Virus record (IMG/VR): IMGVR_UViG_3300025251_000014
Location: 1-58,476 of that record
Length of the DNA: 58,476 nucleotides
Strand: one strand, 5' to 3'
Source: a virus
Lineage: Duplodnaviria; Caudoviricetes
Part shown: piece after piece, positions 4,901 to 27,449 of the stretch
Position numbering within the stretch: the stretch's first letter is position 1
Layout of the letters: every line of letters starts with the position of its first letter
Program-made: the position numbers and the translations under genes
The notes under the pieces: generated by a model
What the model was told of the DNA's origin: nothing
Database searches by the model: none
What the model saw: the letters and a program-made list of their open reading frames with translations, nothing else

Positions 4901-7900
4901 AGCTTATACTTGAAGGCAGCTAAACTATTATCTAACGAAACCTTTTCTGATATTGTAACAAGAGTAGGGCCAACACTAGACAAGATTGCCAGATTAGATG
5001 CTGGTATGAGAAAAAAGGTTCACCAGACACAGTCTAAGTTGAACAATCTTTTAGTTGCTCTGGATCCAGATAGGACTACAAAGGCTCCGAAAGACCCTAT
5101 TAAAGATATAGATGAGATTATAACTACCTTAGATAAGATGGTGGATAGGCAAAAGCTTGATAAAGAGTCAATGCCAGAATCAGCCAAAATAATTGACACT
5201 CTTATTATAGAACTGAACAACCTAAAAAGATCTGTTGATAGGCAGACTGGTAAGTATTCTTTTAATGTACAAGGTATGACTAAGGCTCGAAGAGAGGAAT
5301 TGGCAAAAGAGGCTAAAGATTCAGAGTTCTCAGCTTATGAGATTATGGTAGACCCTATTCAACGTACTATTGAAAAAATAGCACAAAAGGAATATGATGG
5401 TATAGATAAGCTGAACTCCCTTATGATTAGACTTCAGAATGTTGGAACACAAGGACTTCCAGGCTTAGGACTTAGTAAAGAGAATACTGCCAGGATAGCA
5501 GAAGCGATTGCTGCAGAGTGGCAAGGTAAATATTCTGAGTTGAAAAATAAAGGCCTAATGCCTATATCAAAACTTATCGAATACGTTAATAAGGAAGGCT
5601 CTTTTGGTGATGCAGCTAACCTTATAGAAGGTTTTATAGGTCGGGTTAATAAAGCTGTATTAATGGAGAAGAGTAACCCATTAAACAATGATGCTGTAAG
5701 ATATGCAGAAGCTTTAGAGAAACGAAATAATATACATGAGAGACATAGATCTATAAAAGAGATCCTAGAGGAATATGAACTTGTAGATAAAGATAACAAT
5801 ATAGATGAGACTTTCAAGGATGGTATTGTTAATGCACCCAATATTACAGCCTTACACAAGGTGTTAAAAGATAACATTAGATCCAAGATATACGCTGATG
5901 ACTCCCTTAAACCTACCCAAAAAGGTCAAAAGTGGCATCAATTTAGAGATAGAGATGCAATGGAGATTATTAACCAGGTTATGAATGCCCGAACTCTTAA
6001 CATGGTTAGTCTGGAAGGGGTCGATAGAGGAGGTAATAATAGGTCCATATTAAACTTTGAACGTGAAGTACCACACTTTATGAAGCCTAGTACTGAGTAT
6101 TTTGCAAGCAAGCAATACTCCGTATTCCACCTAAGAGGAACAATGAGTTCTACTATAAATAATAAACTTAGGAAGGGATCTATAGAAATTTTGTCCACTG
6201 ATATCATACAGAAGCATATAAATGAAGCCCTTCGTAACAACCCAGATGGTGCAAAAGAAATATTATCCACATTTGCAGAGGGTAATAAAGGTATTAAACT
6301 GTCAGATCTTAAAAAGATGGTAAAAGATGCTGATAAGTATTTCTTCTATGCAAGGCTGTCCCCAATGAACAAGATTCTTTTCGTTGGTACAAAAGATAAC
6401 TTAAAAGCTATGCAAGCTGATTATACCAAATGGTATAATGAAGCGTTAGCTAGATTTTCCAAAGATTCGGGACTTAAAAAGGCATTTACTGATGCTTTTG
6501 GCAAACTAGGTGAGAAAGCAAATGACAATAGATCTACTGTTGAACTAAAGTTGTTGTTACCCTTTTTAGAGCATAATGGATTAAGTAGTCAGATAGATAA
6601 ACTTGTTACAGAAATAGCTGGCAATGGAGATAGTAAGACCATAGCTAAAATACAGATGAATATGTTTAAAAGGCTTTATCTAGCTGATGGCGGCACAACA
6701 CAAGCGGTGTCTAATGAATCTGTAGAATGGGCCTCTAAATACCATCCAGATGCCACTATAAAAAGTATAGCTAAAGAAATACATACTAGGGGTGGATGGA
6801 ATGTAGCATTACTTAAAGATACTGCTGGAGAAGGAGCAGAAGGAATAGATAGCCCTTTCAGTATTAAAGGTATGGTTCAAGGACAGCTAGAAACACTAAT
6901 GAACGCTAAGAATACTACAGGCCTTTTAAAATCTATTACTAAACTACAGCTAGACAGTATAGATAATATACCTAGCTTAGGCAACTCTGTACTTGATGGT
7001 GCCAAGTTTATATCTGAAAATGGGATGAAACTCCTTATGGCTCAGAAGGGTAGATATGAAGCAAACTTTGTAGATGGTCCCAATGGTATGAAAACCATCA
7101 TATTCTCTACTGGTGGCCAGCAAATGCTTGGTAAGGGATATATGATATACAATCCAGAGGTTGCAAAACATATGCCAGCTGGGGTGGATATTTTAATGGG
7201 TGATAGCTCAGCGAAAACATTTAAAGGAATGTCGATTGATGGCAAGTCACCAGTTGAAGCATTGGATCTCGGAACCAATAAGACTGATTGGTACAGCAAC
7301 CTTACAGACCAAACATCTGGTATAGGTGAAAAGCATACTATGACCATTCCTATTAACGCTATAGGTGTATCCTTTGCTTCAAAGAATGGAGATGGAGTAA
7401 CTATATCCCCATCCATATTTGACTTCCAGTCTAAAACTTCTATATCAGAAGCTATGACTTGGATGAAGTTAAAAACTAATATTGAGGAGTTGGGAGCTGC
7501 TTGGGGAACAATGTTTCATGATGGTGGGAAGTTAGCTAAACACCTCTATGATGTACAGATGGGTAAAGGTAATCCTATGGACAGGGGAGATACAGGCTTA
7601 ACCAAACTAATGCTAACGGCTGGTGGTATGCCTGACAATCCACTCCTTATGCAAGCTGTAATGAGAACTATGCGTAGTGAGACCTATGATAAAATAGGGA
7701 ATAATGTAAGCCAGGATGGTGGTTCAGATAACTTTATATCTCCAAATATTGATGGTAAGCTTAGCGTACCAGTGCATGTAGATCTTTTCAAGAATGCTGA
7801 AGCGCCAATGGAGAGAGTTTCTATTAACTATGGTGGTATAGGTATAGATAAGCATACTATGAGTAGGCAAATCGGGTCAAAGAAAGGAATTGGAAGATCT

Positions 7901-10900
7901 TTAACTGGTGAGAAGTTTATCTTTAGGGACTCCAATGGTGTCGATGTTATAATTAGAGCGACAAAAGATGGGTATGAATATAGCTCTACTTTTTATGATA
8001 ACATAGCTTCCCTAAAGACCCATCCTGAAAAGGGTAAAGAAGTAAAATTGGCAGACAAGACAGATGTAAGCAAACTTAAATTGTCAGCCAAAGACAAGGT
8101 AAAGGTAGAAAAGGTACTTAATGAGCTAAGAAAAGCTATATCACATGATACTCATACTTTATTAGATGTCTATAGCCTGTTAGCCGGTCAGAGCGTTTCT
8201 AAAAGGACTGGAAAGACTATTACTACTCATAACATTACCAAGTTTCTAGAGAAGAAAATGAAGCTACAATTGGCAGCAGGAGCTCATGCAATACCTGTTT
8301 TAGGACATGATAAAGTAATCTTCAGGGTAGAGAGAGTGCTAGACAGAATGAATGGGCTAACTGAGGTGAATGTTCATGATCTTAGGGCTATCATGCAGAG
8401 AGATAATGATGGTGACCATATATATGTTCATACTAGAATGCCATGGAATATCATGAAGGATTTTGCAATAGAAAATGGCAGAAAGTCTGACTTTCATATG
8501 TTTGAAGGCAGGGAACAGGTACTTAATCACGAATATATAGACATCTTTGGTTTTGGGGAGGGACATAAAGCAGGTGACAATCCATCTAGCACTGGATTTC
8601 ATTCTTATGCTGGAAGGCTTGAGCAAGCTAAAATGATTACTGGTACTGTTATTGGGGCTAGGAGTGCTTTATCATGGCTTGAAAAGCTTGGCTTTGTATC
8701 TGGAGAAGGTAATGCATTGAGTCCTGTACTTAAAAATCTAACCAATCCAAATGGCAAGGAAACTATGCATAGTAGCGGTTGGCAATGGTTGGACAAGTTT
8801 TACGATACCGTTCAAAATGCTCTAGATATACATGGGGGTATACATGGTAAAATAGCAACAAGGAGAGAGCTAGAGGACTTTTTATTTTATGGATCTACAG
8901 GTGAGTCTGATAAGATAAATACAGCAGATGGCAAATTTAATAAGCATGCCGAGTTTGGTGGAAATATTTTTGGTACTGGGTTTGGGAATAATATAGCGAA
9001 GAGTCAAATAACTAGAGAAATATTTAGTGAAGTCATAAAGACATTGAGATCTGCCAACTCTATTGCAAATGATGTTTATGATGAGGCTGGTAAGCGAGCT
9101 CCAGAACCAGAAGAGCTTAGACAAACATACTATGATATCTATAGTCTCTTTAGTAATCCAACCCAGTACTTATCGAGGTCTGTTGCTAGCAGGATTAGTA
9201 GGGAAAAGAATAAAACTTTGAGAAATGAGCTATTGGGAGAGTATATAGACTTTTTCTATGGTGACATGAGGGATGCATCTAATATAAAGGATCGAAGCGA
9301 GCTTAAAAAAATGATTCTAGATGGAGTAAAAAAAGGTTATATACCAGAGGGTAAATCCAAGTTTAAGTTTACGAATATATCCAGTCCATCAGAAGGCTTT
9401 GATAGATCTATACAGGGAACAATGCTTGCTAAGATACTTAGTCATAAATCTTTTTGGCAAAAGAATTTTGATGGACTCAATACAGAAGGGATCTTAAATA
9501 AGGACAAGGACTTATATAAAAAGGCTGGCCTATTTCTAAGTAATATAGAGCATTATGCAGATATGTCTAGACTGCTTGGACTAGATCCTATTAAAGAGCT
9601 TGAAAAGAGCAATGGAGATATATTTATAAACTCCTTTGATGGCCAATCATTGGGTGATGCACCTAAGAAATCATCAGGAGCCATAGGCAAAGCTTTACAT
9701 GCTGGGGTTCTTAAATCTGTCCTTCAACGTCAGTATAGGAGCGTGCTAGGATCGTTAGAATACTATAGACATGAGCGCTTTACTAATCCACATAAGATGG
9801 AGAAAATAGAAGCCAGACTTGCTAGATTGCAAGATGCTATCAATATTATGGATCGGCAAATGGCTAGAGATATGGTTATTGATAAGGAGCGTGATGTCCA
9901 GATATTTGATGCAAAGTTAAAACAAGAGGGCCCACAGCATTATAGATTCAACACTTTAAAAGACCACCAAAAAGTAGCAATATATGAGATTAAGGGAGAT
10001 GTGCGTAAGCTAGAAACTAAGGATGATCAGTTTACAGCTAATGATTTAGAGGCAGAGAGTGGTAGAATAAACTTTAGCCAGTTAAAATTTAAAGGTATCT
10101 TTACCAAGAAGAGTAATAAGTTCCAGCTTAGAAAGGGCTTTACATATGTGATAGATAAGAATCCTAGAACACATGAACTAACAAGCAGTAACAATATAAT
10201 ATATGGGAATGCTCTTCACCTTATCACTGGTGGCAATCAGTATGTACCAGAGATATTTTTAGGTAGCGCTAAGCTGGGAGATGCATACAGAAAGGATTTA
10301 GCTGTACTCAGAGCTACTATAGGTATAGAATACTCAGGAGTTATTGATGCTGCTATGAAGCAAAAAGTTTTAAAAGATGGCTTATTTTCTATGAGCAAGC
10401 TAAGTGAGGTATCAACTATCAAGAAATTTATAGAAAAGTGGATCGGTGAAGTAAAGTCTAGTGGAACCGAAGAGAGTATTGATGTTTTACTTAAAAGTAT
10501 TATAGCTCCAAGAATGTCCTTTACATCATATGCACAAGATGGTGCTGGTGTAGATAAGATAGCATACAAGTATAACCAACACTTAATGAAGTCTATTTTA
10601 CAGTTCTCTGTTGACTATGCAAAGGAATATGGCAGTGGCAAGTTCTTAGAGACCTTTGTTAAGGATTGGGAGAATGCAGCAAGAGGAGACCATGAAGGAC
10701 CTGATATATCTTTTTATGATAGAAGCATTCCGACTAAGTACAATTGGAAAAAGTTTGGCTCTATGGCTAACCCAGTACGATCATTAGCAAATAATATATT
10801 CTTTGCTTCGCCTGCACTAAATAAGATATTAGACCAGCTAGAGAGCAATCAGAGTATTAAACCACAAATTATAGAAGTCACACCAGGTGGGGAGAAAGTA

Positions 10901-10975
10901 ATGGTTGGTGTGAAGAAAGTAAGAACGGCAGAAGAGTTACTTCACCTTAACGAAGGGAGAGACTGTGGCTTGTAA
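1925..10975 (+). CDS. Giant virion protein, 3016 aa, with a putative two-barrel (double-psi beta-barrel) RNA polymerase domain
   Basis: Ordered motifs LDGAKFIS (D1691), GKGY (K1737), DSSAKTF (K1764) and QRDNDGD (aa 2160-2164, nt 8402-8416) resemble the DG..IS / KG / S..K / DxDGD motifs of QDE-1-like RdRP, YonO and crAss-like virion RNAPs; N-terminus is Gly/Ala-rich and hydrophobic like ejected proteins. Confidence 0.72.
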   Translation: MPLSKKALLQIQQGNKPLNTYSPSHLYDDLSGALEPHDSGNMLDFVGSALWGVTSGLTWGVSELAVPSKPWEEMNTAERSGWILGEGVSLFAPLGPFGLMAKGSRAAVKGTNKFIKEGAESAVKAGIKNVDNLSKAQARKVALALKKGVSVEDDLVKALNKAAESDIGLRWLKDLQSTGKFALDASDNLVASSMFAVKKAFKKAGVRIRPDSAERISREFVDHLQQGNYVNDIAEWVTRGLAGRIPDTAKGFLSKYLGMATQDMYMMGLHGLISGKMKSIANGEDFDIGGSLSHAALMSLGFPLIRMIPLGGKMKLTQGIKAYRDSFNKVDYNKIRAKHGDDVVKNLARVMLKGRRMDLINKSMIAESSWKVGGKQYTNGAAVLDDLHNMTGKHTVEFLDKARVSVNNMLKSKWGKEFLLDVAGSIPRMGVGIAAMNPWVLNKDAWGSMEGPELASHLFMSALMTRGRGAWGHTEQRAKFADFTPYHEVLNILGVDHSNVKEKIAFHDGMNPLEGAGLALSTDTTADQIHQIFTKRIGESGVKPKGQEYNESDHALAKQMSMIHDIINRSKDESARETRVEYLSKETLNEIVADLKSIKFEDGTTIGEIGYEASLVKLTTGPAKQALGHYKQIMRNLHSEGFGDFVSIDEAGNITGRLVKSNNYGTPMKDVDTYNEILMALNKIGEAKIIDGESRHSYEMLIKNSGIEEGQFNERVRKIIDDGMDVLGREFNDHGIKRHPIDENPLWDFISQAKTVEASERIYNMIVGTPKGSKEKSDKHLLAALDAVFMVRGSEKYSANISDYFKTIKGYHSREDGKKLTEEQKEANNNIEVQLEGLRTLFNLRKKALKGPTHKEPIGEVDQSVLTEVHDKWMEIYKTMPADWRANWSENISEMMITRMLRAQGVDRRARPLIEYGIENKLIWQGVDGNLSMTSKKAMIQDLRDTKEASEAEIKKYRKAFTKIEKVLKDVVTFVDVVPTESNVAGVETVDRSLYLKAAKLLSNETFSDIVTRVGPTLDKIARLDAGMRKKVHQTQSKLNNLLVALDPDRTTKAPKDPIKDIDEIITTLDKMVDRQKLDKESMPESAKIIDTLIIELNNLKRSVDRQTGKYSFNVQGMTKARREELAKEAKDSEFSAYEIMVDPIQRTIEKIAQKEYDGIDKLNSLMIRLQNVGTQGLPGLGLSKENTARIAEAIAAEWQGKYSELKNKGLMPISKLIEYVNKEGSFGDAANLIEGFIGRVNKAVLMEKSNPLNNDAVRYAEALEKRNNIHERHRSIKEILEEYELVDKDNNIDETFKDGIVNAPNITALHKVLKDNIRSKIYADDSLKPTQKGQKWHQFRDRDAMEIINQVMNARTLNMVSLEGVDRGGNNRSILNFEREVPHFMKPSTEYFASKQYSVFHLRGTMSSTINNKLRKGSIEILSTDIIQKHINEALRNNPDGAKEILSTFAEGNKGIKLSDLKKMVKDADKYFFYARLSPMNKILFVGTKDNLKAMQADYTKWYNEALARFSKDSGLKKAFTDAFGKLGEKANDNRSTVELKLLLPFLEHNGLSSQIDKLVTEIAGNGDSKTIAKIQMNMFKRLYLADGGTTQAVSNESVEWASKYHPDATIKSIAKEIHTRGGWNVALLKDTAGEGAEGIDSPFSIKGMVQGQLETLMNAKNTTGLLKSITKLQLDSIDNIPSLGNSVLDGAKFISENGMKLLMAQKGRYEANFVDGPNGMKTIIFSTGGQQMLGKGYMIYNPEVAKHMPAGVDILMGDSSAKTFKGMSIDGKSPVEALDLGTNKTDWYSNLTDQTSGIGEKHTMTIPINAIGVSFASKNGDGVTISPSIFDFQSKTSISEAMTWMKLKTNIEELGAAWGTMFHDGGKLAKHLYDVQMGKGNPMDRGDTGLTKLMLTAGGMPDNPLLMQAVMRTMRSETYDKIGNNVSQDGGSDNFISPNIDGKLSVPVHVDLFKNAEAPMERVSINYGGIGIDKHTMSRQIGSKKGIGRSLTGEKFIFRDSNGVDVIIRATKDGYEYSSTFYDNIASLKTHPEKGKEVKLADKTDVSKLKLSAKDKVKVEKVLNELRKAISHDTHTLLDVYSLLAGQSVSKRTGKTITTHNITKFLEKKMKLQLAAGAHAIPVLGHDKVIFRVERVLDRMNGLTEVNVHDLRAIMQRDNDGDHIYVHTRMPWNIMKDFAIENGRKSDFHMFEGREQVLNHEYIDIFGFGEGHKAGDNPSSTGFHSYAGRLEQAKMITGTVIGARSALSWLEKLGFVSGEGNALSPVLKNLTNPNGKETMHSSGWQWLDKFYDTVQNALDIHGGIHGKIATRRELEDFLFYGSTGESDKINTADGKFNKHAEFGGNIFGTGFGNNIAKSQITREIFSEVIKTLRSANSIANDVYDEAGKRAPEPEELRQTYYDIYSLFSNPTQYLSRSVASRISREKNKTLRNELLGEYIDFFYGDMRDASNIKDRSELKKMILDGVKKGYIPEGKSKFKFTNISSPSEGFDRSIQGTMLAKILSHKSFWQKNFDGLNTEGILNKDKDLYKKAGLFLSNIEHYADMSRLLGLDPIKELEKSNGDIFINSFDGQSLGDAPKKSSGAIGKALHAGVLKSVLQRQYRSVLGSLEYYRHERFTNPHKMEKIEARLARLQDAINIMDRQMARDMVIDKERDVQIFDAKLKQEGPQHYRFNTLKDHQKVAIYEIKGDVRKLETKDDQFTANDLEAESGRINFSQLKFKGIFTKKSNKFQLRKGFTYVIDKNPRTHELTSSNNIIYGNALHLITGGNQYVPEIFLGSAKLGDAYRKDLAVLRATIGIEYSGVIDAAMKQKVLKDGLFSMSKLSEVSTIKKFIEKWIGEVKSSGTEESIDVLLKSIIAPRMSFTSYAQDGAGVDKIAYKYNQHLMKSILQFSVDYAKEYGSGKFLETFVKDWENAARGDHEGPDISFYDRSIPTKYNWKKFGSMANPVRSLANNIFFASPALNKILDQLESNQSIKPQIIEVTPGGEKVMVGVKKVRTAEELLHLNEGRDCGL

Positions 10976-18843: not shown

Positions 18844-18922
18844 TCTCTCCTTTATTGTTAAGATTAACAAGGGACTGAAATAGCCCCCTATTAATCGTTT
18901 ATGGATTGACATCCTACGTGTA

Positions 18923-18951
18923 AATATACACATAGTAGTGTCTAACCGCAA
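18923..18951 (-). promoter_or_regulatory. Sigma70-like promoter for the replication genes
   Basis: TTGCGG-17 nt-TATATT on the minus strand; shares GTATATTTACA with the promoter at 30861-30893. Confidence 0.55.
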
Positions 18952-18970
18952 AGCTTTTTCTGCCTTCCGG

Positions 18971-19624
18971 TTATATTTTCTGTATCATCATAGTTGGAAA
19001 GTGGAAGCTGAAGTCACCATTAAAAGGTGAGTTTGTTATAAACTTGCGTACAGCATTAGCTATAAAACTACCACTCATATTTGCGCAGTAACTTGTAGCT
19101 TTAGCATTGCATGGTTCTTCATCTCCTTCTGCATCTGAGTACCACACCTTTTGATACTTCTTAAGCGTTGGTTTACTTATAAAGTATTGTTGATAGTGTT
19201 CAGCACCCATCCTTCCATCTATGATGCATTCTGGTTTTGTAGTAGGGTTAGAGCATATAGTTGTGACCGCCTCCAATCGCGATCCCATGGAATCAAACCC
19301 AATGATTACTATATCCTTCTGATCTTGAAAGTAGAACTCATCAAATTCTCCTGTATGTTCATCTACTATACAGTTAGGTTCAATGCTAAGCAAGTGCCCC
19401 TTTAATGCTTGCGTTTTATATTTATCAATATCGCTTTGTGTATACTGTGATACACCAATATTGACATCTTCTACTTTGTCACGATCATACAGATGAAAGC
19501 TCATAGCCCCCATTCTAACCAGTTGTGTTGCTGCGGAACTCCCAATAGCTCCGCAGCCAAGTATATGGAATGTATATTGACCAGTCCCTTCAAAGAGACC
19601 TTCTGATCTAGCTGTAATACTCAT
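18971..19624 (-). CDS. ThiF/MoeB/E1-family ubiquitin-like activating enzyme
   Basis: ILGCGAIGS nucleotide-binding loop, YDRDKVEDVN, K70, GFDS, IIDGRMG, candidate catalytic Cys172 (EEPCN); N-terminal Arg6; no Zn CxxC pairs. Confidence 0.92.
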   Translation of the reverse strand: MSITARSEGLFEGTGQYTFHILGCGAIGSSAATQLVRMGAMSFHLYDRDKVEDVNIGVSQYTQSDIDKYKTQALKGHLLSIEPNCIVDEHTGEFDEFYFQDQKDIVIIGFDSMGSRLEAVTTICSNPTTKPECIIDGRMGAEHYQQYFISKPTLKKYQKVWYSDAEGDEEPCNAKATSYCANMSGSFIANAVRKFITNSPFNGDFSFHFPTMMIQKI

Positions 19625-20556
19625 TAATACACCATTCCTTCGTACATATCATCATCCCACCAGTCATCAAGAGGATCATCATTATAACTTCCATATATAT
19701 TCATACCAGAGGTTTTATACTCTACAAACTTATATGGAAATAAGTGTAATAACTTTTCCTTTTGATTTTCAGGAAGTAATCTTACCTGATATAAAGAATC
19801 TTCTTTCTTAAGTTCCTCATTCAGCTTTTCTATACCTTCCTTGTATAAAGGATAGCTAATAGTACCAGCTATAAGATCAGTATTAAGCTCATCTACATCC
19901 TCTATTACTTCATTGACATGTTTAGGCTTTTTTGTTAGCATAGCCTCACCTAAAGGAAGTCTTCTTTGATTATCATATTCTGGCCAACCATCAGCATAGG
20001 TAGTAGACTTTTTCATACTACCATTGTACATATGTGTTGGTCTAGTATATGTAAAAGGTTTCTCTTTAGTACAAAGAGCTTCTACTTCTTTCTTTATAGC
20101 TTTGGTTACTTTAGTTTTGCCATAAATAGTAAGCTCTTCATCTGAATGTACTTCAAATGGCTCCCATACAGAAACCCTAAATTTGTATTCTTCCTTCAGA
20201 TTTACTACCAAAGCAAAAGAAAAGTCCCCTTCATTAAACTCATCTATAGCTTTTAGGTCAGTAGAAGACCAGAAAGCCTTCATAGTGTGATGACTATGCC
20301 ACCAGCAAAATCTATACTCTTCATCACCCATTATTTTAGCTGTCTTAGTATAATAGTTAGCTAATGCATCCTTATCTAATACTGTGTTACCTGTCGATAT
20401 TTCCTGTTTTAGAATGACTGGTTTCTTTATCTCCCAATCACCATCTTTGTCTTTAACAACAACAGACATACCACCTATCTCGCTCTTTTCAGTTTCATAA
20501 GCGTGTTCAGAGTAGCCTATTATCTTATTCCATGCATTATTTTGTATATAAAACAT
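19624..20556 (-). CDS. JAB/MPN+ (JAMM) metallopeptidase with C-terminal extension
   Basis: E26 (SEIGG) and WWHSHHTMKAFWSSTD = H87-x-H89-x7-S97-xx-D100; TAATG-coupled to the E1 gene. Confidence 0.92.
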   Translation of the reverse strand: MFYIQNNAWNKIIGYSEHAYETEKSEIGGMSVVVKDKDGDWEIKKPVILKQEISTGNTVLDKDALANYYTKTAKIMGDEEYRFCWWHSHHTMKAFWSSTDLKAIDEFNEGDFSFALVVNLKEEYKFRVSVWEPFEVHSDEELTIYGKTKVTKAIKKEVEALCTKEKPFTYTRPTHMYNGSMKKSTTYADGWPEYDNQRRLPLGEAMLTKKPKHVNEVIEDVDELNTDLIAGTISYPLYKEGIEKLNEELKKEDSLYQVRLLPENQKEKLLHLFPYKFVEYKTSGMNIYGSYNDDPLDDWWDDDMYEGMVY

Positions 20557-20570
20557 TTCATCTCCTTTAG

Positions 20571-21290
20571 TTAATCGTTTTTTTGTTCTTTATTTTCCCT
20601 TACCATTTCATATAAAGCATTCTCTATAAATGCCTGTACAATCTTCTGTACTAAGTCATCTGGAATATGTAAAGATAAAGAACCATCACCTTCTTCTTCG
20701 CACTCTATTTTATGGCATGTTCTATAATGTTCATCACACCACCACATATTGTTTCTTCGGCTTGTGGCAATTTCTCTACAACCAATATTAACACAGTAAA
20801 CCATTATATGTTCATCTTTAGTCCTATCTTGGGCTTCATCTTGGGCTTGTATCGTTTTGTTGGTGTCAACAATACGTTCATCTTCTACCATTTTGTCAAC
20901 GTCAGCAATTGCGCCTAATAGCTTACGACCATCATGAAAGTGTTCCTCACACCACCATGCATTCTTAATTCGGGCAACAGCAAGTTGCCCACAATCCATT
21001 TTAGCACAGTAAGGTTTTACAAATCTATCTTGGGCACCTTCTTCTTCGCACTTATGGTCTAATTGTGGGATACAATCAAGTGGCTTATCCCAAGCATCTG
21101 TCATATCCTTATAATCAGGATAATTAAAATCTCTAACTGATGTTACAGTACCCCTTCTCTCGCAATAATCACACTTACCATTCCAGTATGTAACTGGAAA
21201 TTCGTGTGGAGTACCAAGTTTTGTCCCACAATCTCCACATATATCACAAGTTTCTATTTGTGGCTCATTTGCTTTCTTTTTGTGGCTCAT
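20571..21290 (-). CDS. Multi-zinc-finger protein, 239 aa
   Basis: CDICGDC...CDYC, then two repeats of AQDR..YC....C...A.......WWC.EH. Confidence 0.65.
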   Translation of the reverse strand: MSHKKKANEPQIETCDICGDCGTKLGTPHEFPVTYWNGKCDYCERRGTVTSVRDFNYPDYKDMTDAWDKPLDCIPQLDHKCEEEGAQDRFVKPYCAKMDCGQLAVARIKNAWWCEEHFHDGRKLLGAIADVDKMVEDERIVDTNKTIQAQDEAQDRTKDEHIMVYCVNIGCREIATSRRNNMWWCDEHYRTCHKIECEEEGDGSLSLHIPDDLVQKIVQAFIENALYEMVRENKEQKND

Positions 21291-21487
21291 TTCTTACTCA
21301 CTTTCTTTAATGAGCAATATTCTGTATCGAAATCCTCTATTGCTACTACATACCCACATTCGTGGGTAAGTTCTGACACTATTGTCTCTAATCTGTCTAT
21401 TCTACTTGACAGTTTCTTGACGTGTTCTTTGGTTGTTTTATTACTTCCTGCTTCCCATAAATGGTATCTTCTTCCAAACATTCTCAT
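21287..21487 (-). CDS. Hypothetical protein, 66 aa
   Basis: ORF track; ATGA overlaps; GGAG RBS. Confidence 0.6.
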   Translation of the reverse strand: MRMFGRRYHLWEAGSNKTTKEHVKKLSSRIDRLETIVSELTHECGYVVAIEDFDTEYCSLKKVSKK

Positions 21488-21675
21488 AGCATCTCCTTTT
21501 TATTAAATTCCCACATAAAATCTTCAGGTTCGTTTTCAGTGATGTTCTTTTTGATAAAGTCAAGACAAGCATCCGTGCTTTCAAATCTTAAAACCTCTCC
21601 ATCGTCATCCAACAAATATTCATTACCATTGAGGCTTACTCCCTCTATTGGTCTGCCTATACAATATTCTTTCAT
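21484..21675 (-). CDS. Hypothetical protein, 63 aa
   Basis: ORF track; AAGGAG RBS. Confidence 0.65.
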   Translation of the reverse strand: MKEYCIGRPIEGVSLNGNEYLLDDDGEVLRFESTDACLDFIKKNITENEPEDFMWEFNKKEML

Positions 21676-21706
21676 TTTATTTCTCCTTTATTTCTTGTTT
21701 TATCCA

Positions 21707-21985
21707 TCATTCATCTCCTTTCAACGCTAAAATCAGCATTTTTACAGAGCCAACTGTTTTGTACGAATATGTACTTGGCACAAATTCAATATCTACCTCT
21801 ACTTCAGTTCCACCGACATAAGAATATAATTCAACTCCATTGATAGTTAATTCGTACCTATTAACTGTGTCAAAAGATTTCCTAAACCCAAACTCCTTCA
21901 ATGTTTCATCTGTGAGGAGTCTATCTTCATCGTCTATATCAACTCCAAATGTTGTACCCATTCTTTCTCTTTTATTGGTTTGCAA
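21707..21985 (-). CDS. Hypothetical protein (likely start 21961, MGTTF)
   Basis: ORF track; AGAGAAAGAATG motif precedes 21961. Confidence 0.6.
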   Translation of the reverse strand: MQTNKRERMGTTFGVDIDDEDRLLTDETLKEFGFRKSFDTVNRYELTINGVELYSYVGGTEVEVDIEFVPSTYSYKTVGSVKMLILALKGDE

Positions 21986-22110
21986 TATGCTTTTTTTCCT
22001 GTTGTATCACAGCGACTTAAATAACCTCTTTTAAACATAAGGATTTTACTTTCTTTTAGCCTCATATCTCTTACAAATATATTATTACAATGTGGGCAAA
22101 GGAATTTCAT
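21934..22110 (-). CDS. Small Cys-containing protein, 58 aa (MKFLCPHC...)
   Basis: Read manually; preceded by the AAAGGAGAAAGAATG repeat. Confidence 0.6.
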   Translation of the reverse strand: MKFLCPHCNNIFVRDMRLKESKILMFKRGYLSRCDTTGKKAYCKPIKEKEWVQHLELI

Positions 22111-22244
22111 TCTTTCTCCTTTAACTCTATAATTGAAGTATTTAAACTATTAATAGCCTCTTTCAATGTATCTGATAAAAGCCCTTTTCCATTCCAGACT
22201 ACAATAACTGTACCTGATTCAAGTTCTTCTATTTTCTTCACCAT
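22107..22244 (-). CDS. Hypothetical protein, 45 aa (MVKKIEE...LKEKE)
   Basis: Read manually; GGAGAAAGAATG start motif; ATGA overlap with the next gene. Confidence 0.55.
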   Translation of the reverse strand: MVKKIEELESGTVIVVWNGKGLLSDTLKEAINSLNTSIIELKEKE

Positions 22245-22429
22245 TCTTTCTCCAATCTTAACTGTAAGGCAATAATATATGTACCCATAGCCCTTATCTG
22301 TATCTCCAAAAGATGCTTTTCTCTTGTTGGTAGAGTTGCATATTCTCCTGAATCAAGAAATGCTGAAAGTTTAGAATATTTTTCTTGCATATCTTCAAGT
22401 TCAATGTTTAGTTTTTCTATGTTTTTCAT
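22238..22429 (-). CDS. crAss001_48-like small helical protein
   Basis: E..D..EK..KL..F......L...EK.LL..Q...M..Y...L..R pattern; AAGGAG RBS. Confidence 0.65.
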   Translation of the reverse strand: MKNIEKLNIELEDMQEKYSKLSAFLDSGEYATLPTREKHLLEIQIRAMGTYIIALQLRLEKEW

Positions 22430-22451
22430 TATTCTTTCTCCTTTGTTATTG

Positions 22452-22535
22452 TGGGTAGAGATGGATTTGCACCAACGAACTCCTAAGAGGACAGTTTTAC
22501 AGACTGTCTGCTTTAGCTAACTTGCATATCTACCC
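22452..22535 (-). tRNA. tRNA-Tyr(GTA)
   Basis: Acceptor GGGTAGA/TCTACCC, anticodon arm ACAGT-CTGTAAA-ACTGT, long variable arm, T-arm with GGTGCAAATCC; no encoded CCA. Confidence 0.9.
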
Positions 22536-22542
22536 ATAAATT

Positions 22543-22695
22543 TCATTCTTTCTCCTTTAATAATGCTTTGATTGGCTCAATATATTCATTCTGCTGATGG
22601 GAGTATTCCCAAGGTTCTAAGATATTAATCATCCATAAACCAATCCATATTGCTAATCTTTGCCTTAATGTGAACATTTTAATTTCTACTTTCAT
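22543..22695 (-). CDS. Hypothetical protein, 50 aa, one hydrophobic segment (ends LKEKE)
   Basis: Read manually; flanked by AAAGGAGAAAGAATG repeats. Confidence 0.6.
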   Translation of the reverse strand: MKVEIKMFTLRQRLAIWIGLWMINILEPWEYSHQQNEYIEPIKALLKEKE

Positions 22696-22705
22696 TCTTT
22701 CTCCT

Positions 22706-22855
22706 TTATTGTTTCTTTCTTTTTGGAAAAATCTCCCACAGATCTTGTAAAACTTGATTTATGGCATTTTCTGTTATTTCGTAACTGCTATAAATATCAC
22801 AGTAATTTTTTATAACTGCTATTTCAAACAGTTGGTTTTTAAGATTTCTTGTCAT
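22706..22855 (-). CDS. Hypothetical protein, 49 aa (MTRNLKNQ...)
   Basis: Read manually; AAGGAG RBS. Confidence 0.55.
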   Translation of the reverse strand: MTRNLKNQLFEIAVIKNYCDIYSSYEITENAINQVLQDLWEIFPKRKKQ

Positions 22856-23126
22856 TCTCTTTCTCCTTGAATTTTAGGGCAAATGAAGTTAATTCTCCTT
22901 CAAGTTTTGTACTGTCTGTCGTAACAAGACAATCACTCTGCCCCAATTCTTCTAACCAAAGTTTTACAAGTTTTGCTTTTGGAAAATGGTCATGTCCAGT
23001 ATTCTTTTTAGATAGTTCATAATAGTATCCATCTTCAATATATACTCTATATTCATTTCTATAATCTTTTATGTGTTTAATACTTGCAACATTTATGTAA
23101 CTGTTATGTGTTGTTTGAATAATCAT
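22839..23126 (-). CDS. Hypothetical protein, 95 aa (N-terminus loosely LytTR-like: THNSYINVASIKHI)
   Basis: ORF track; AAGGAGAAAG RBS. Confidence 0.6.
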   Translation of the reverse strand: MIIQTTHNSYINVASIKHIKDYRNEYRVYIEDGYYYELSKKNTGHDHFPKAKLVKLWLEELGQSDCLVTTDSTKLEGELTSFALKFKEKENDKKS

Positions 23127-23168
23127 TTTCTTTCTCCTTATAAACTGTCGTTAATTACTATTAGTTTT

Positions 23169-23458
23169 TAGCAAGGATGTGGTCTGTCACCCCCACATCT
23201 CTCGTTTATGTAACGAGGTTCTTTCATCAACTTACATTAGTAAGTGAGCATTTGTTATAGGCATGAAGCCATTTAGACAAGTGGACATTTGAAGTAATCC
23301 TTGCTATCACTTGCTATTGGTACAAAGTACCGACCTGTGCAATTACAATTCCGTCTATAGCCACATCACCCACCTGTTAATGCCTTATACTCGTAAGCAT
23401 AAGCACCCTAACATACGTCTTGGTGGACGCAGTGTTGTCACTGTATAGACGGAATTGT
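23169..23458 (-). ncRNA. Two adjacent candidate structured RNA elements
   Basis: 10-bp closing stem 23169-78/23297-306 and perfect 15-bp closing stem 23345-59/23444-58, each with internal hairpins; no ORF. Confidence 0.5.
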
Positions 23459-23487
23459 CAACTCTAGAAGGTTGATATTGGCATTTG

Positions 23488-23646
23488 TCAACCCTGATCA
23501 AATCCGCCAAATATATCTGTCATTCCCTTTGGCAGTTCGGTTTTCTGATTATAACAATCAGTACAGGTGGCATAGAATGGTTTAATCCTGCCTTTGTTTA
23601 GTTCTAGTACCACTTTATCACATTTAATACACTTTATTTTTCTCAT
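23488..23646 (-). CDS. Small zinc-ribbon protein, 52 aa (MRKIKCIKC...TCTDC)
   Basis: Read manually; two CxxC pairs. Confidence 0.55.
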   Translation of the reverse strand: MRKIKCIKCDKVVLELNKGRIKPFYATCTDCYNQKTELPKGMTDIFGGFDQG

Positions 23647-23684
23647 TCTAAATATAGTAAGTTATCATTTTTGTTAATTTATTG

Positions 23685-23759
23685 TTGCGGGCACAGGAGT
23701 CGAACCTGCTATCTCCAGGATATGAACCTGGCGGTGATTATCCGTTTCACTCGCCCGCT
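23685..23759 (-). tRNA. tRNA-Met(CAT), initiator-like
   Basis: Acceptor AGCGGGC/GCCCGCA with a 1:72 mismatch, anticodon arm CCAGG-TTCATAT-CCTGG, T-arm GCAGG-TTCGACT-CCTGT; no encoded CCA. Confidence 0.88.
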
Positions 23760-23803
23760 AAACCTTCTTGTTCGCTCTTGGTACAAGAATAGACCATAGG
23801 AAG

Positions 23804-23866
23804 GGGGAGAGCTAACTAGGCCGTCCCATGCCAACTTAAGTAGCACCTAGCGTAAGCGCCCTCCCC
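23804..23866 (-). ncRNA. Candidate structured RNA element just 3' of the E2-like gene
   Basis: Minus-strand closing stem GGGGAGGGC/GCTCTCCCC (G-U only on this strand) plus a CTAGG/CCTAG stem. Confidence 0.45.
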
Positions 23867-23870
23867 AATT

Positions 23871-25904
23871 CTAAAGATTCTGTGTACCACCTCCCATTTG
23901 TGTGGCCCACCTTAATACTCTTTGTTCATGAGTCAAATCATCATCATCTTCAACTTCATTACGAGGAAGGTTATCCCCAGATCCTACTGTATCTTGAAAT
24001 CCTTCATCAAGTGTGAAACCTCGAAGAACATCTGCTGTAGTTCTTGTAGGAAATACATCATCTACAGAAGAAGGAGGATTGTCTGAAACTTCTTCTCCCC
24101 TTTCCTCTATGCGTGCTTCCTGTCTATTTTTAGCACCATTAAGTGAAACTCCGTCTAATGTATCAAGTATGAATTTCCTAGTAATGTTATACTTTTTGAT
24201 ATTCTCAAATATCCTTTTGTGTACCAGTTCAAGGTTCATAGCATTGTGATATCTACCCATAGTATGAATGATAAACTGAGTAGTCTCCAAAACATCAAAG
24301 TCATCATTATCTCCATATTTTTCATACTCAGATGCAAATGCTAAGTCTGCCAATCTTTGCCATAAATAGAGATTATAAGTCTTATCTACTGTCCGGTAAA
24401 ATTGAAACTGCTTCATATCTTCTATATAAACCTCTGGATATCTATTAACTTCAACTCCTTCTGCAGCCTGTCTTATATCACCAATTGTCTCAAACAAAGT
24501 AGAAAATTCAAGATTGTTACCAAGTATAGCTTCTGTTTCTGGTAACATCTCATCATCTCCATATATCTGTTTCATAACATCATAAGCATAGCAATCATCC
24601 TGAAATGTACATTCAACACAAGGAAAGTCTTCTATTTTAACATGATTAATATATTGTACTTGCCTTTCTTCTTGCACTGTACGTGGATAAGAGTTTCTAC
24701 TTCTAGATGAAGTTTGACTATAGCCTGCTAATGCATTATGTAAATATTGTAGAAATTTACAATCACCAACACTATTTAAGTTACCACAAGTATAATAATT
24801 ATCATTATCACTTGGTTGTATGTTACTAACATGTTCATTATTTCCCATACTTTTTAACATCCTAAAGTTGGCTAAAGGATTAGTTTGAGGTATATAATAA
24901 GTATATAACCATGTCTTAATGTGTGTAATATGAGCTGATAGCTGCATATTTAACAAAGTACTAGACAGTTCACCACTCATGTTACCTCTACATATATGTT
25001 GGAAATGAAAGTCATCTATACCATCTAGTTCCATTTTATACTTATCATGAGTTTCACCTATATATGGATGTCTATTTAGAAGCATGTTATCAAAGAATAA
25101 ACAACCAATAGCAAAGCTTAATCCATTTCTATTAGCTATAACATCACCATCTCTTTTCCATAGATTGGCTAATAAAGTGAATAAATGAACACCTGTATAT
25201 ACCATAAGTACATTGTTTGTAGGTATAAGGTCTTCTTTCACTTTAGTACTTCCTTCATCATCAAAACATATCTGTTGTACAAACATTGTCTCATTGGTAA
25301 AAATTGTTTTAAAGATAAGCATAAAGTTAACAGAGGTAGGACTATCTACATCTACTACATTAAGATAGCCTGAAGAACCATTACCATTATACCCTCTTGA
25401 GTTAGTAGTTCTAGTCATACCTGCAACGTATGGCTCTATAGTAACATCAGGATAAAGCTTATTAATAGTTGCAATTTCTTTATCTATGCGTTCTAACAGT
25501 TTACCATACTCCTCTTCTAGGTCTTCAGTATTATCTTGCCAACCTATACCAAGTGTTTTGATATTTCTTATCTGCATCTCTAGTTCAAGAGTTTGTTGTT
25601 TAAAGTGACGATATCTCCATTGAAACCTGCCTATCCTATCAAAAATAGAATGTAAACCCCTGGGTTTCATATCCCAACGTAAGACATTCCTACCATAAGC
25701 TTTCTTTATATCATTATAAGCACCAGGTTTAAAGTTAAACTGTCTATTTAACTGTAAATTAGTACCATAAGTATTGTTATAACTTTCTAGTGATCGTAAT
25801 AGATCTCCTTGTGGACCTATATGGATATTGTCTACTAACTGTTTTAAGTCAACTACAAAATCTTTTAAGGGAACCATGTGTCCTTCTAAGTCTTTCATGT
25901 TCAT
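23871..25904 (-). CDS. Large protein with a prokaryotic E2-like (ubiquitin-conjugating) domain, N-terminal coiled coil and Cys cluster
   Basis: HPYI (nt 25068-70) ... HICRGN (Cys at 24990-92), then helices and TY...NP, the HP.h...hC.G signature of E2 folds; later CGN..DC and CVECTFQDDC; GGAG RBS favours ATG 25904 over the track start 25943; adjacent to the Ubl gene. Confidence 0.65.
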   Translation of the reverse strand: MNMKDLEGHMVPLKDFVVDLKQLVDNIHIGPQGDLLRSLESYNNTYGTNLQLNRQFNFKPGAYNDIKKAYGRNVLRWDMKPRGLHSIFDRIGRFQWRYRHFKQQTLELEMQIRNIKTLGIGWQDNTEDLEEEYGKLLERIDKEIATINKLYPDVTIEPYVAGMTRTTNSRGYNGNGSSGYLNVVDVDSPTSVNFMLIFKTIFTNETMFVQQICFDDEGSTKVKEDLIPTNNVLMVYTGVHLFTLLANLWKRDGDVIANRNGLSFAIGCLFFDNMLLNRHPYIGETHDKYKMELDGIDDFHFQHICRGNMSGELSSTLLNMQLSAHITHIKTWLYTYYIPQTNPLANFRMLKSMGNNEHVSNIQPSDNDNYYTCGNLNSVGDCKFLQYLHNALAGYSQTSSRSRNSYPRTVQEERQVQYINHVKIEDFPCVECTFQDDCYAYDVMKQIYGDDEMLPETEAILGNNLEFSTLFETIGDIRQAAEGVEVNRYPEVYIEDMKQFQFYRTVDKTYNLYLWQRLADLAFASEYEKYGDNDDFDVLETTQFIIHTMGRYHNAMNLELVHKRIFENIKKYNITRKFILDTLDGVSLNGAKNRQEARIEERGEEVSDNPPSSVDDVFPTRTTADVLRGFTLDEGFQDTVGSGDNLPRNEVEDDDDLTHEQRVLRWATQMGGGTQNL

Positions 25905-25922
25905 AGTTTTATCTCCAATGAT

Positions 25923-26001
25923 AGACATAGGGGATGATGACAATTCTTTTAGCTTGCATTGCGAAGTTTCTCAAGAGCATTGACCACTCATCCCCATGTC
26001 T
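25923..26001 (-). promoter_or_regulatory. Structured leader between the Ubl and E2-like genes
   Basis: AGACAT(A)GGGGATGA 25923-37 pairs with TCATCCCCATGTCT 25988-26001; internal hairpins; ends just upstream of the E2-like RBS. Confidence 0.5.
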
Positions 26002-26035
26002 GGTTATTTATGTACCCTAACTTTTAGGATATTAC

Positions 26036-26290
26036 CTACACTATTGGTTCAAGTGTAATGGTAAAGCGTACCTTAAAGTTAAGTGTTTCTAATCCACCTG
26101 TTTTGTTGCTGCTAACTGCTGCTACAATGTCACCATCTTGCAGTTCATAGTTATCAGTAACTCCACGTCCATTGACAGCTACGGTTGCATTTGCAGCTAT
26201 ATCTAGCTCTTCTCGCAATGCACCTACATTAGCGCTGTTGACTTCTCGTTCGGGGAATCCACCCCCACTAAGTACTTTAATATTAGGCAT
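26036..26290 (-). CDS. Ubiquitin-like (ThiS/MoaD beta-grasp) protein precursor; KTGG66 followed by an 18-aa extension
   Basis: NVGALREEL...VAVNG....DNYELQDGDIV.....KTGG is the ThiS/MoaD/prokaryotic Ubl pattern; GGAGG RBS. Confidence 0.88.
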   Translation of the reverse strand: MPNIKVLSGGGFPEREVNSANVGALREELDIAANATVAVNGRGVTDNYELQDGDIVAAVSSNKTGGLETLNFKVRFTITLEPIV

Positions 26291-26473
26291 TTATGCCTCC
26301 TTTGTTATTGTTTCATTGTCACGTAACTTTTTCCATTCAGCCTTTGGTACATACTCGGCTTCATGCTTTTCTACTACCTTCCTAGCATCTTCATCCCTTA
26401 CCCGTAAAAGTGTACCTATGGGTACTTGTTTCCAATGCTGAGAATTCTTTGTTAATGTTTTGATAGTCTTCAT
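26291..26473 (-). CDS. Hypothetical protein, 60 aa, directly upstream of the Ubl gene
   Basis: ORF track; GGAGG RBS; stop abuts the Ubl start. Confidence 0.7.
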   Translation of the reverse strand: MKTIKTLTKNSQHWKQVPIGTLLRVRDEDARKVVEKHEAEYVPKAEWKKLRDNETITKEA

Positions 26474-26486
26474 TGCTATCCTCCAG

Positions 26487-26747
26487 TTATTGTACTCTCC
26501 ATACTCGTATTCTTCGAGGTTTACTTGCAGGTCCAGCTTCTGTTCTTATAGAAATCTTAATATTGCGATCTTTAGCTTCTGCATATAAAGTTGAAGAACA
26601 TCGAGGACTATAATCAGGCATGTTACCATTAATCACAAAACTATCGCCTATATCCAGAGTACTTAGAAATGCATACTTAAGACCTTTATCGTATCTTAAA
26701 CGAGGTCGAGGTACATTCTTTTCTATTGTTATTACATTTGTTGACAT
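26487..26747 (-). CDS. Small putative DNA-binding protein (IEKNVP.P...KY.F...L.IGDSF...RVWR family)
   Basis: Motif pattern common in phage small DNA-binding proteins; AAGGAG RBS. Confidence 0.65.
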   Translation of the reverse strand: MSTNVITIEKNVPRPRLRYDKGLKYAFLSTLDIGDSFVINGNMPDYSPRCSSTLYAEAKDRNIKISIRTEAGPASKPRRIRVWRVQ

Positions 26748-26852
26748 TGCTGTCTCCTTCTTCTTTGGTTATTGTTATTAGTATTAGTAAGATAGCCTGC
26801 CGTACTAATTTAATAATAAAGCAGGCATCTCTCTTTTGTGAGAAGTGGTCAA

Positions 26853-27323
26853 CTACTCGCTATCCACACTCGGATAATTACAATCAAGGACCTTGTGGCT
26901 AGCATCTCCCAGACCATCACCATCGACATCTCTGTACCAAGTGATCATGCCTTGTCCATCGCATTGTCCACAAATATCCCATTCATTAGAGTAGCAGTTA
27001 TCGTCTATGTCATCAGAGTTTCTGACCCATTGACTAGCTACTATGATACTCCCTTGTAGGTTGGTAGTATATTCACTACCCTTCCACCAGAATGTATGAC
27101 CTTCACCATGAGCTCGGTATTGTATCTCAAAAGCATCTTCGAATGACATATCATCGAGATTGAGTTCAACATATGTCCATTCTGCATCTTTAGGGTACTT
27201 ATAACCTTCTAAGGTATTAGGTGTTACAACAGTGTTGGTTATCTTCGGAGTAGTTTCTCCTCCCCCTTCAGCACTATCACACCCGATCACTAGTATCATT
27301 ATTGCTATCACAATGATTCTCAT
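26853..27323 (-). CDS. Lipoprotein with a DxCGxCxG / WYxDxDGDGxG putative metal-binding motif
   Basis: Signal peptide with lipobox LVIG-C; C-terminal DICGQCDG and WYRDVDGDGLGD (MopE-like motif). Confidence 0.75.
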   Translation of the reverse strand: MRIIVIAIMILVIGCDSAEGGGETTPKITNTVVTPNTLEGYKYPKDAEWTYVELNLDDMSFEDAFEIQYRAHGEGHTFWWKGSEYTTNLQGSIIVASQWVRNSDDIDDNCYSNEWDICGQCDGQGMITWYRDVDGDGLGDASHKVLDCNYPSVDSE

Positions 27324-27449
27324 CTTTTTTTCCCTCCAGTATTTGTTTTATTAGTTTAACTTGTTTCTTTAACCTAGCCATCTCTCTAAACATCTCTCTT
27401 TCAAGATGTGGTGGAGTAGACAGCTCTTCTATTAACCTATGTTTATTTC

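Follow-up and report, generated by a model that had tools for sequence, protein, structure and literature searches.

We analysed a 58,476-nucleotide stretch of viral DNA (Duplodnaviria; Caudoviricetes; IMG/VR record IMGVR_UViG_3300025251_000014, positions 1 to 58,476; hereafter the window), whose minus strand carries the gene of a small ubiquitin-like protein (Ubl) with an internal di-glycine motif, a putative pro-protein. Because the window encodes terminase, portal, head and tail-fibre proteins as well as replication genes, the DNA is that of a phage, an uncultured marine one. The Ubl gene (26036..26290, minus strand) runs from an ATG start to a TAG stop at 26036-26038 and encodes 84 residues, which divide into a core (residues 1-66) and an 18-residue tail (L67-V84; 26039..26092) that reads LETLNFKVRFTITLEPIV. 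The residues directly before the tail are SSNKTGG, placing the GG internally at 65-66 of 84. A preliminary description of this DNA had reported SNKTGG with G65-G66 at nucleotides 26093-26098 followed in frame by an 18-residue tail, and the gene reads exactly so (G65 at 26096-26098, G66 at 26093-26095); these two codons mark the predicted site of cleavage and activation. Further along the same strand lie the genes of p690, a protein of 677-690 residues (23871..25904, the start being uncertain between TTG 25943, ATG 25928 and ATG 25904), a 310-residue JAMM/MPN+ peptidase (19624..20556) and a 217-residue mini E1 (18971..19624). The module sits in a replication and recombination block that includes Sak4, a primase-helicase and a RusA-like resolvase.

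The 84-residue protein is a ubiquitin-like β-grasp protein of the ThiS/MoaD kind. Its ThiS match in Pfam (PF02597; 22.4 bits, E 1.9e-4) falls just beneath the gathering cut-off of 22.5 bits, the same label is precomputed on several close homologues, and NCBIfam gives a weak match to moaD_arch. An AlphaFold2 (AF2) model built on 39 homologues, with a predicted local distance difference test (pLDDT) score of 77.4, has strands at residues 3-8, 14-16, 36-39 and 55-59 and a helix at 22-28, which is the β-grasp order. The top matches of this model in the Protein Data Bank (PDB) by Foldseek included Mth1743 (1ryj; E 7.4e-4, template modelling (TM) score 0.66 on the target), the Caldiarchaeum ubiquitin (6fj7), ThiS (3cwi) and TtuB (5gha_H), and further matches were MoaD, SUMO and NEDD8. 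Classical ThiS and MoaD end at GG. The 84-residue form lacks this terminal Gly-Gly of ThiS/MoaD Ubls and would acquire it only once processed. Neither the DNA of 18900-27400 nor the Ubl protein had a match in the cultured-phage database. The tail has a grand average of hydropathy (GRAVY) of +0.66, compared with -0.19 for the core, and its hydrophobic pattern (h..h.h.h.h.h.h..hh) makes it amphipathic, alternating and strand-like. The alternating peptide of the preliminary description is therefore borne out, whereas its label of a hydrophobic tail was too strong. In the AF2 model the lowest pLDDT (59) is found at residues 61-70 around the GG, and the tail is assigned no strand.

The peptidase consists of a JAB domain (about residues 1-140) and a C-terminal region of no recognised fold. 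It scores 21.4 bits against Prok-JAB in Pfam, below the cut-off of 25; the JAB models of PADLOC match it at E 3.6e-4, and there is a weak JAB profile match to the Rpn11-like PDB entry 6fjv (E 0.0035). The E...HxHx7Sx2D motif is complete, with E26, H87, H89, S97 and D100 invariant in all 16 aligned homologues; E26 and H87, which had been named in the preliminary description, are both JAMM residues. The mini E1 is a single ThiF-type adenylation domain (62.7 bits, E 3.6e-17; Pfam cut-off 28.1), is also matched to ThiF by NCBIfam, and keeps GCGAIGS, D47, D49, D111, C172 and C180 in 12 of 12 sequences. A predicted complex of JAB(1-165) with Zn and the pro-Ubl scored 0.76, but the control, in which an unrelated protein was substituted for the JAB, reached 0.83, so that the prediction is no evidence either way.

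Among close homologues of the Ubl, 94 of 98 keep the motif [SND][ND]K[TK]GG, the other four being truncated or mutated there. None of the 94 ends at the GG: their tails, of 82 distinct forms, are 1 to 38 residues long, with Leu as the first tail residue in 41. The preliminary description had asked whether homologues end at GG or carry variable tails, and for these close homologues it is the latter. All 39 aligned homologues have K63, G65 and G66, and there is no conserved column beyond the GG. Conservation in the family thus collapses exactly at the GG, where the scissile bond is expected. The tails fall into classes that are each conserved internally: very short ones (Q, EK, EKK, DTQ), strands of about ten residues (for example LEVINFKVKK), forms of 18-22 residues, a helical YW... 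class (25-41 residues), the HDVDVY... and xWIWIY... classes (33-39 residues), and a side clade with ...GGG followed by xxFINL. Most tails of at least nine residues have in common an alternating strand in which roughly the sixth or seventh residue (P6'/P7') is aromatic (list read by eye). The short amphipathic strand in these longer tails may dock on the primed side of the peptidase, or may shield the unprocessed Ubl.

The tail does not derive from a faulty assembly. An identical 84-residue protein is on record from 35 contigs, and locus L005, one of 84 comparison loci encoding Ubl relatives (4 viral and 80 metagenomic), encodes the same protein unchanged. Contigs from four other public runs, one of which (X4) was flagged as a possible source of the window DNA, span 26036-26092 with no indel and no substitution inside the tail. 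The same contigs differ from the window by 0-1 substitutions, namely G>T at 26240, which is synonymous (codon read by hand), and G>A at 26304, which falls in the upstream gene. An assembly or sequencing error that deleted a stop directly after the GG, and so created a read-through tail, had been named at the outset as the finding that would undo the pro-protein idea. The four-run contigs agree with the window instead of carrying such a stop, and at least one residue follows the GG in all 94 close homologues that keep the motif. We consider this origin refuted and give it practically no weight.

The full length of the tail, in turn, overstates its conserved part. In its closest relatives, L006 and L007, the tail is 12 and 11 residues long, respectively, behind a core 89-93% identical to that of the window; the two sequences are LHIDNFKVKLV (11 residues) and LHIDNFKVRKLM. 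The window carries about 45 extra nucleotides after ...AACTTTAAGGT, which are absent from L006 and L007, and the ancestral gene end can still be discerned beyond its new stop codon. These 45 or so nucleotides are an imperfect inverted copy of the tail-coding sequence. Insert and tail-coding sequence together form a predicted RNA hairpin that spans the stop codon (26014..26086, minus strand; -21.8 kcal/mol, z -2.93, with 2 of 200 shuffles folding equally well) and contains the inverted repeat 26018-26028/26071-26081. Only LETLNFKVR, about 9-10 residues, fits the recurrent motif L-x-x-[ILV]-x-F-x-[VIY], and the last nine or so residues, FTITLEPIV, are a lineage-specific by-product of the insertion. 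Given that the distal half stems from this insertion, the 18-residue strand is not to be taken as a designed unit. The tail of 18 residues described earlier is present in the window; as a conserved feature it shrinks to about half.

The tails are mosaic, a fast-evolving and recombining appendage rather than a precise functional module. Pairs whose cores are at least 95% identical number 309; in 97 of them the tail identity does not exceed 25%, and three pairs combine 100%-identical cores with unrelated tails (P0002/P0032, P0025/P0073, P0013/P0030). Counted by codon position in 43 pairs drawn from 27 sequences picked by nucleotide identity, differences amount to 198/75/772 for the core and 136/80/163 for the tail; ten disjoint pairs give 51/21/178 and 36/22/42. 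The pN/pS ratio is 0.14 for the core and 0.50 for the tail (68 pairs), the tail value being biased downward because these pairs were pre-selected for tail identity of at least 40%. From these counts the core is strongly constrained, and the tail weakly constrained, not neutral but far less than the core. We also considered whether the tail co-evolves with p690 and rejected this, since no covariation was found beyond shared ancestry (partial rho -0.03 given core identity).

Such residual constraint bears on the possibility that the protein works uncut, with the GG as a relic and the tail as a docking or oligomerisation strand of a non-covalent β-grasp adaptor. The alternating strand with its central aromatic that longer tails share, the constraint within tail classes and a pLDDT of 83 at residues 71-80 (AF2) would all fit an uncut protein. 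A strand of this kind is hard to square with tails of 1-38 residues that are unrelated between identical cores, with the tailless wider relatives described below (26 of 82), or with the lack of covariation with p690. Moreover, the GG is invariant and an intact E1 is always present. We therefore regard a protein that works uncut as very improbable.

A profile search of 1.84 billion representatives (E at most 0.001) extended the family to 117 proteins, of which 111 were new. Three of the 111 are longer than 300 residues and were left out of the tail classes; the motif is absent in 26, many of them apparently truncated or frame-shifted; and a K.GG end is recognisable in 82. Among these 82, 26 end at the GG, 34 have tails of 1-5 residues, nine have tails of 6-12, seven have tails of 13-45 (including P0162, a mis-parse), and six continue into a fused domain longer than 45 residues. 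These domains match small genes that stand on their own upstream of the Ubl in related loci. For instance, the C-terminal part of P0120 matches L029:674-913 (E 7e-4), which lies between the homologues of p156 and p60, the slot that p86 occupies in the window (26487-26747); the similarity of P0120 to p86 itself was seen by eye only. Members with a free GG, with a short tail or with an entire protein fused on form a spectrum that speaks for a cut after the GG as part of the normal working of the family, and by analogy it resembles the classical pattern of ubiquitin-fusion precursors. In eukaryotic Ubl precursors (ubiquitin fusions, SUMO, NEDD8, ISG15) the core ends in GG, and variable tails or fused proteins are removed by dedicated peptidases. 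Those precursors differ in lineage and host context, and are processed by cysteine proteases where the candidate here is a JAMM enzyme. Scans of the loci for relatives that end at GG gave no match with the single proteins P0129, P0104 and P0121, and with P0136 a 25-residue match only.

The genes that accompany the Ubl are conserved with it. Several of the 84 loci are copies of one phage (L003 and L013, for example), so that the following counts are not independent. Of 55 loci that extend 600 nucleotides or more downstream, 54 have a p690 homologue behind the Ubl gene (all but L078). A JAB homologue is found in 17 of the 18 that extend 3.5 kb or more (all but L002), and an E1 homologue in all 14 that extend 4.5 kb or more. 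The contiguous order in relatives is p60, Ubl, p690, JAB, E1, Sak4, with the JAB gene some 20-900 nucleotides beyond p690. Eight distant loci (Ubl profile E 8e-18 to 4e-9) keep the four-gene order wherever the contig allows. The functional link between Ubl and JAB that was proposed earlier across the gap in the window thus holds, since in relatives the four genes adjoin one another and keep their order.

In the window the JAB gene begins 5.48 kb past the Ubl stop, and this spacing is due to a lineage-specific insertion of about 3.3 kb between p690 and JAB (20571..23870, minus strand) that holds two tRNA genes and small open reading frames (ORFs). The tRNAs, both on the minus strand, are tRNA-Met (CAT; 23686-23758) and tRNA-Tyr (GTA; 22451-22535). 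Directly upstream of the JAB gene, the insertion ends in a Cys-rich ORF of 239 residues (20571-21290, minus strand) with CxxC pairs and a repeated ...WWC[ED]EH... motif, which looks zinc-finger-like and has no homologue in any of the 84 related loci. No terminator-like site was found on the minus strand between 19 and 28 kb, and promoter-like sites were fewer than in shuffles (39 vs 49.7). The timing switch that the preliminary description had drawn from maturation of the Ubl by the JAB finds no support: the genes lie on one strand within one early/replication block, with no terminator-like site between them, and are set apart by an insertion.

We then considered p690, the largest member of the module. 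It matches nothing in Pfam, PHROGs, PADLOC, NCBIfam, the ESM Atlas or PDB sequences, and its AF2 model (pLDDT 70.1) has no Foldseek match in the PDB (best E 0.5). An alignment of 21 sequences shows P280 to be invariant with H279 and Y281 at least 90% conserved, giving an H-P-Y motif, followed by invariant C305 and G307 in a stretch with the consensus NICTGNM. C382, C429, C432 and C438 are also invariant, in the pattern P-C-x-x-C-x-F-x-x-x-C. Exhaustive structural comparison with VIA-align placed residues ~124-363 on UBC/RWD folds at Z 4.8-6.1, a range flagged as common; the rows include the Ltn1 RWD domain (9gy4_F, Z 6.1), 8aaf_e (5.6), the Knl1 RWD domain (4nf9_A, 5.4), UbcH10 (5a31_Q, 4.9), the E2 1yrv_A (4.9) and UbcH5c (8uqe_B, 4.8). 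In BFVD six viral proteins share the p690 fold (E 1e-20 to 3.5e-14), and there are weak rows for crAss-like proteins. The HPx...Cys arrangement is, as we take it, reminiscent of the HPN...Cys of E2 enzymes, and there is no E2 match for p690 in Pfam or PADLOC. We treat p690 as a candidate E2-like component, a lead suggested by modelling rather than a finding. Behind an acidic linker, p690 ends in a conserved C-terminal peptide, ...RWATxxGG[AG]xNL. This peptide loosely recalls the Ubl end (GG, then x-x-[IL]-N).

Processing of Ubl precursors by JAB peptidases has experimental precedents in bacteria. BilC trims BilA at the bond joining G97 to A98 and acts on conjugates as well, cleaving them (PMC10557695); in homologues of BilA the additional residues number as many as nine (PMC10557695; 10.1101/2023.09.04.556158). 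The JAB domain of BubCD cuts BubAB after G229 (PMC11601596). As early as 2006, cutting by JAB at the last glycine of phage or fused Ubls was predicted (PMC1779556).

The module most resembles Bil in having four genes, Ubl, second component, JAB and E1, in the same order (10.1101/2023.09.04.556158), and in a Ubl with residues past the conserved glycine, which the JAB (BilC) trims in Bil (PMC10557695) and is predicted to trim here. Unlike Bil, it is encoded by a phage within a replication and recombination block rather than in a bacterial defence island, its E1 is one 217-residue ThiF domain whereas BilD has two adenylation domains in tandem, one inactive and one active, and a Cys domain (PMC11601596), its second component has 480-700 residues and no recognisable E2 sequence signature, and its tails reach 38-41 residues as opposed to nine or fewer. 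PADLOC matches the module with its generic JAB and E1-E2 models only. Bub (6E/DUF6527) shares a JAB cut directly after the conserved glycine that frees the Ubl (PMC11601596), a cut that is predicted for the phage, and the Ubl-domain fusions of distant phage relatives are analogous to BubAB; the phage module differs in having no DUF6527 protease, in its separate JAB and E1, and in an E1 that keeps C172 and C180. The tail proteins I and K of lambda and T1 offer a phage parallel, with a β-grasp domain, a glycine boundary followed by extra sequence and a JAB predicted to cut (PMC1779556). They belong to tail-assembly clusters without an E1, and their JAB is fused to NlpC/P60, whereas the window module has an E1 and lies in a replication block.

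These data allow us to propose a course of events for the module. Since the catalytic residues of both the JAMM peptidase and the E1 are invariant, the best reading is that G66 is first freed by cleavage and then adenylated, and we consider it probable, though by no means assured, that the pro-Ubl is cut by the JAMM peptidase, adenylated by the E1 and then transferred, probably via p690. The 84-residue precursor would be translated with G65-G66 locked in a peptide bond. E1 enzymes adenylate a free C-terminal carboxylate. The JAMM metallopeptidase would cleave after G66 and free the tail, the ThiF-type E1 would adenylate the exposed G66, and the activated Ubl would probably be handed via p690 and its invariant Cys305 to host or phage proteins as its targets. 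Conjugates, too, are probably stripped by this peptidase. We infer the cleavage, the enzyme responsible, the conjugation through p690 and the nature of the targets from the features set out above.

Several points weigh against this proposal. Cleavage itself is deduced from sequence. In one locus, L086, the Ubl ends in GG, yet p690, JAB and E1 are retained; loci with tails of 1-3 residues likewise retain JAB. Conservation of the JAB is therefore not specific evidence for trimming, and deconjugation is at least as likely to be what keeps it. The Pfam scores of both the Ubl (22.4 vs 22.5 bits) and the JAB (21.4 vs 25) stay under their curated cut-offs, some tail classes are conserved internally so that the uncut protein may have a function, and an E2-like p690, which no sequence library recognises, is suggested by structural matches of Z 4.8-6.1. 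The preliminary description held that the phage JAB must mature this Ubl. The masked GG, the linked JAB and E1 and the precedents of Bil and Bub favour that step; the word must goes beyond them, as L086 keeps its JAB with nothing to trim. The core of that description, a masked pro-Ubl tied to the JAB and E1 of the phage, has good comparative backing.

The same locus would suit a scheme in which p690 (through Cys305 and His279) or a host protease removes the tail and the JAB only reverses conjugates. That p690 always adjoins the Ubl gene and has a conserved His...Cys pair is in keeping with such a role, and in eukaryotes the enzymes that process Ubls are mostly cysteine proteases. Searches with p690, however, brought up neither a protease fold nor a protease family, and in both characterised bacterial systems it is the JAB that trims. 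Removal of the tail by an enzyme other than the JAB thus seems to us rather improbable.

A different outcome of the same cut would be a sulfur carrier of the ThiS/MoaD/TtuB type, in which the JAB-trimmed Ubl is adenylated, converted to a thiocarboxylate and donates sulfur, with no protein conjugation; the Cys-rich p690 might, for example, thio-modify a nucleic acid or cofactor. JAB-dependent sulfur-carrier pathways are known (CysO/Mec, QbsE/QbsD). The nearest sequence and fold relatives of the Ubl and E1 are indeed sulfur carriers and their E1s (ThiS in Pfam, moaD_arch and ThiF in NCBIfam, and the ThiS, MoaD and TtuB structures), the E1 is a single small ThiF-like domain, and p690 has the invariant Cys cluster C382, C429, C432 and C438. 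The association of JAB with ThiS/MoaD-E1 neighbourhoods was noted in 2006 and tied to sulfur assimilation (PMC1779556). In contrast to such neighbourhoods, no rhodanese, cysteine desulfurase or PP-loop enzyme, nor any other sulfur-metabolism gene, was recognised in a scan of 20 neighbouring ORFs, and the module includes a large conserved partner protein. The gene order is that of the Ubl-E2-JAB-E1 Bil operons, p690 gives hints of a UBC/RWD-type fold, and the Ubl-domain fusions suit a conjugation and processing system better. On balance we hold a sulfur carrier to be unlikely, and retain trimming by the JAMM peptidase followed by conjugation as the preferred reading.

Between the Ubl gene and p690 lies a conserved structured RNA element of about 80 nucleotides (25917..26005, minus strand), just 5' of the GGAG and ATG of p690. 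A covariance model, R1, built from 42 sequences scores the window copy at 70.5 bits and finds no second copy in the 58-kb window. One copy per locus is present in 45 of 52 sources, always between the Ubl gene and p690. The structure was set by hand and realigned with the covariance model; in this alignment, which is fitted to the structure and so favours it, 88.8% of cells form standard pairs (43-49% with partners slid), 14 of 19 pairs show compensatory change, and none of 500 shuffles reaches the observed scores. The raw MAFFT alignment supports six pairs only (RNAalifold). G-U pairs are frequent in the element, consistent with its lying on the coding strand. Rfam has no match to it. The side clade has a plain hairpin with a T-run terminator at this position, and the element is missing there, as it is in the distant loci and in crAss001, a cultured crAss-like phage. 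Through attenuation, processing or translational control, it may adjust how much of the enzymes is made in relation to the Ubl.

Upstream of the Ubl, the module is bordered by p60, a small basic protein (26291..26473, minus strand) whose stop abuts the Ubl start and which is a conserved neighbour, and by p86, another small protein (26487..26747, minus strand), whose counterpart slot is the one fused behind the Ubl GG in the distant relative P0120. Some homologues join p60 and the Ubl directly: in P0031 the 60-residue protein is fused in frame to the Ubl, P0069 is a read-through from it into the Ubl frame, and P0138 is an apparent chimera of a Ubl N-terminus and the C-terminus of the 60-residue protein, joined at a shared LRDE-like stretch. 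Elsewhere in the window, a 3016-residue ORF (1925-10975, plus strand) has no PHROG match at E at most 1e-5, and the same is true of the 507- and 884-residue ORFs beside it. No DNA polymerase was recognised among the window ORFs scanned. There are no terminal repeats at the contig ends and ORFs are open at both, so completeness of the genome is not established.

Relatives of the E1, at about 30% identity, occur in 77 phage records; crAss-like phages of Bacteroides and phages of Flavobacterium account for most of these. In crAss001 (L085, record 81394-85804) gp76 is the E1 homologue (tblastn E 1.8e-20). It is preceded by gp77, annotated as a metalloprotease and showing the HxHx7Sx2D motif by eye, and this in turn by the unannotated gp78 and gp79. 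By eye, gp79 starts in a Ubl-like manner and gp78 has an H-x-H-V-S...C-T-G motif like that of p690; hhalign did not support gp79 and gp78 as Ubl and p690 homologues (probability <1%). Judged by eye and by synteny, gp76-gp79 may be the same four-gene module, which we offer as a lead only.

Trimming of pro-Ubls by peptidases is already known from the bacterial Bil and Bub systems. What is new here is the phage-borne setting, the minimal E1 with a second component that no library recognises, the length, mosaicism and domain fusions of the tails, and the associated RNA element. In the open-access literature we found no description of such a phage module beyond the 2006 prediction for lambda tail proteins I and K. 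To our knowledge, work on bacterial Ubl conjugation (Bil, Bub, type II CBASS) has until now dealt with it as anti-phage defence. A conserved and complete-looking Ubl-JAB-E1 module is now found on the phage side, in about 90 environmental loci in this analysis, and E1 relatives occur in cultured crAss-like phages of gut Bacteroides. The masked GG offers a simple experimental entry, with one peptide bond and one peptidase. Should p690 prove to be an E2-like enzyme of a new kind, conjugation machinery would be more diverse than is known at present.

The mosaic tails and fusions suggest a phage form of ubiquitin-fusion logic, serving co-expression or controlled release. We put forward, as a tentative possibility, that these genes constitute a previously unstudied phage ubiquitination-like system, made up of a pro-Ubl, an E2-like p690, a JAMM peptidase and a minimal E1, with exchangeable cassettes after the GG and a ratio of modifier to enzymes set by the structured RNA, acting as part of the 5' leader of p690. 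If so, the system would tag host or phage proteins and mirror the bacterial Bil defence on the phage side, and the Ubl would serve in addition as a cleavable leader for the delivery of peptides or whole small proteins after the peptidase has been produced. Such a system would then be widespread in the replication modules of marine phages, with a relative of its E1 in crAss-like and Flavobacterium phages.

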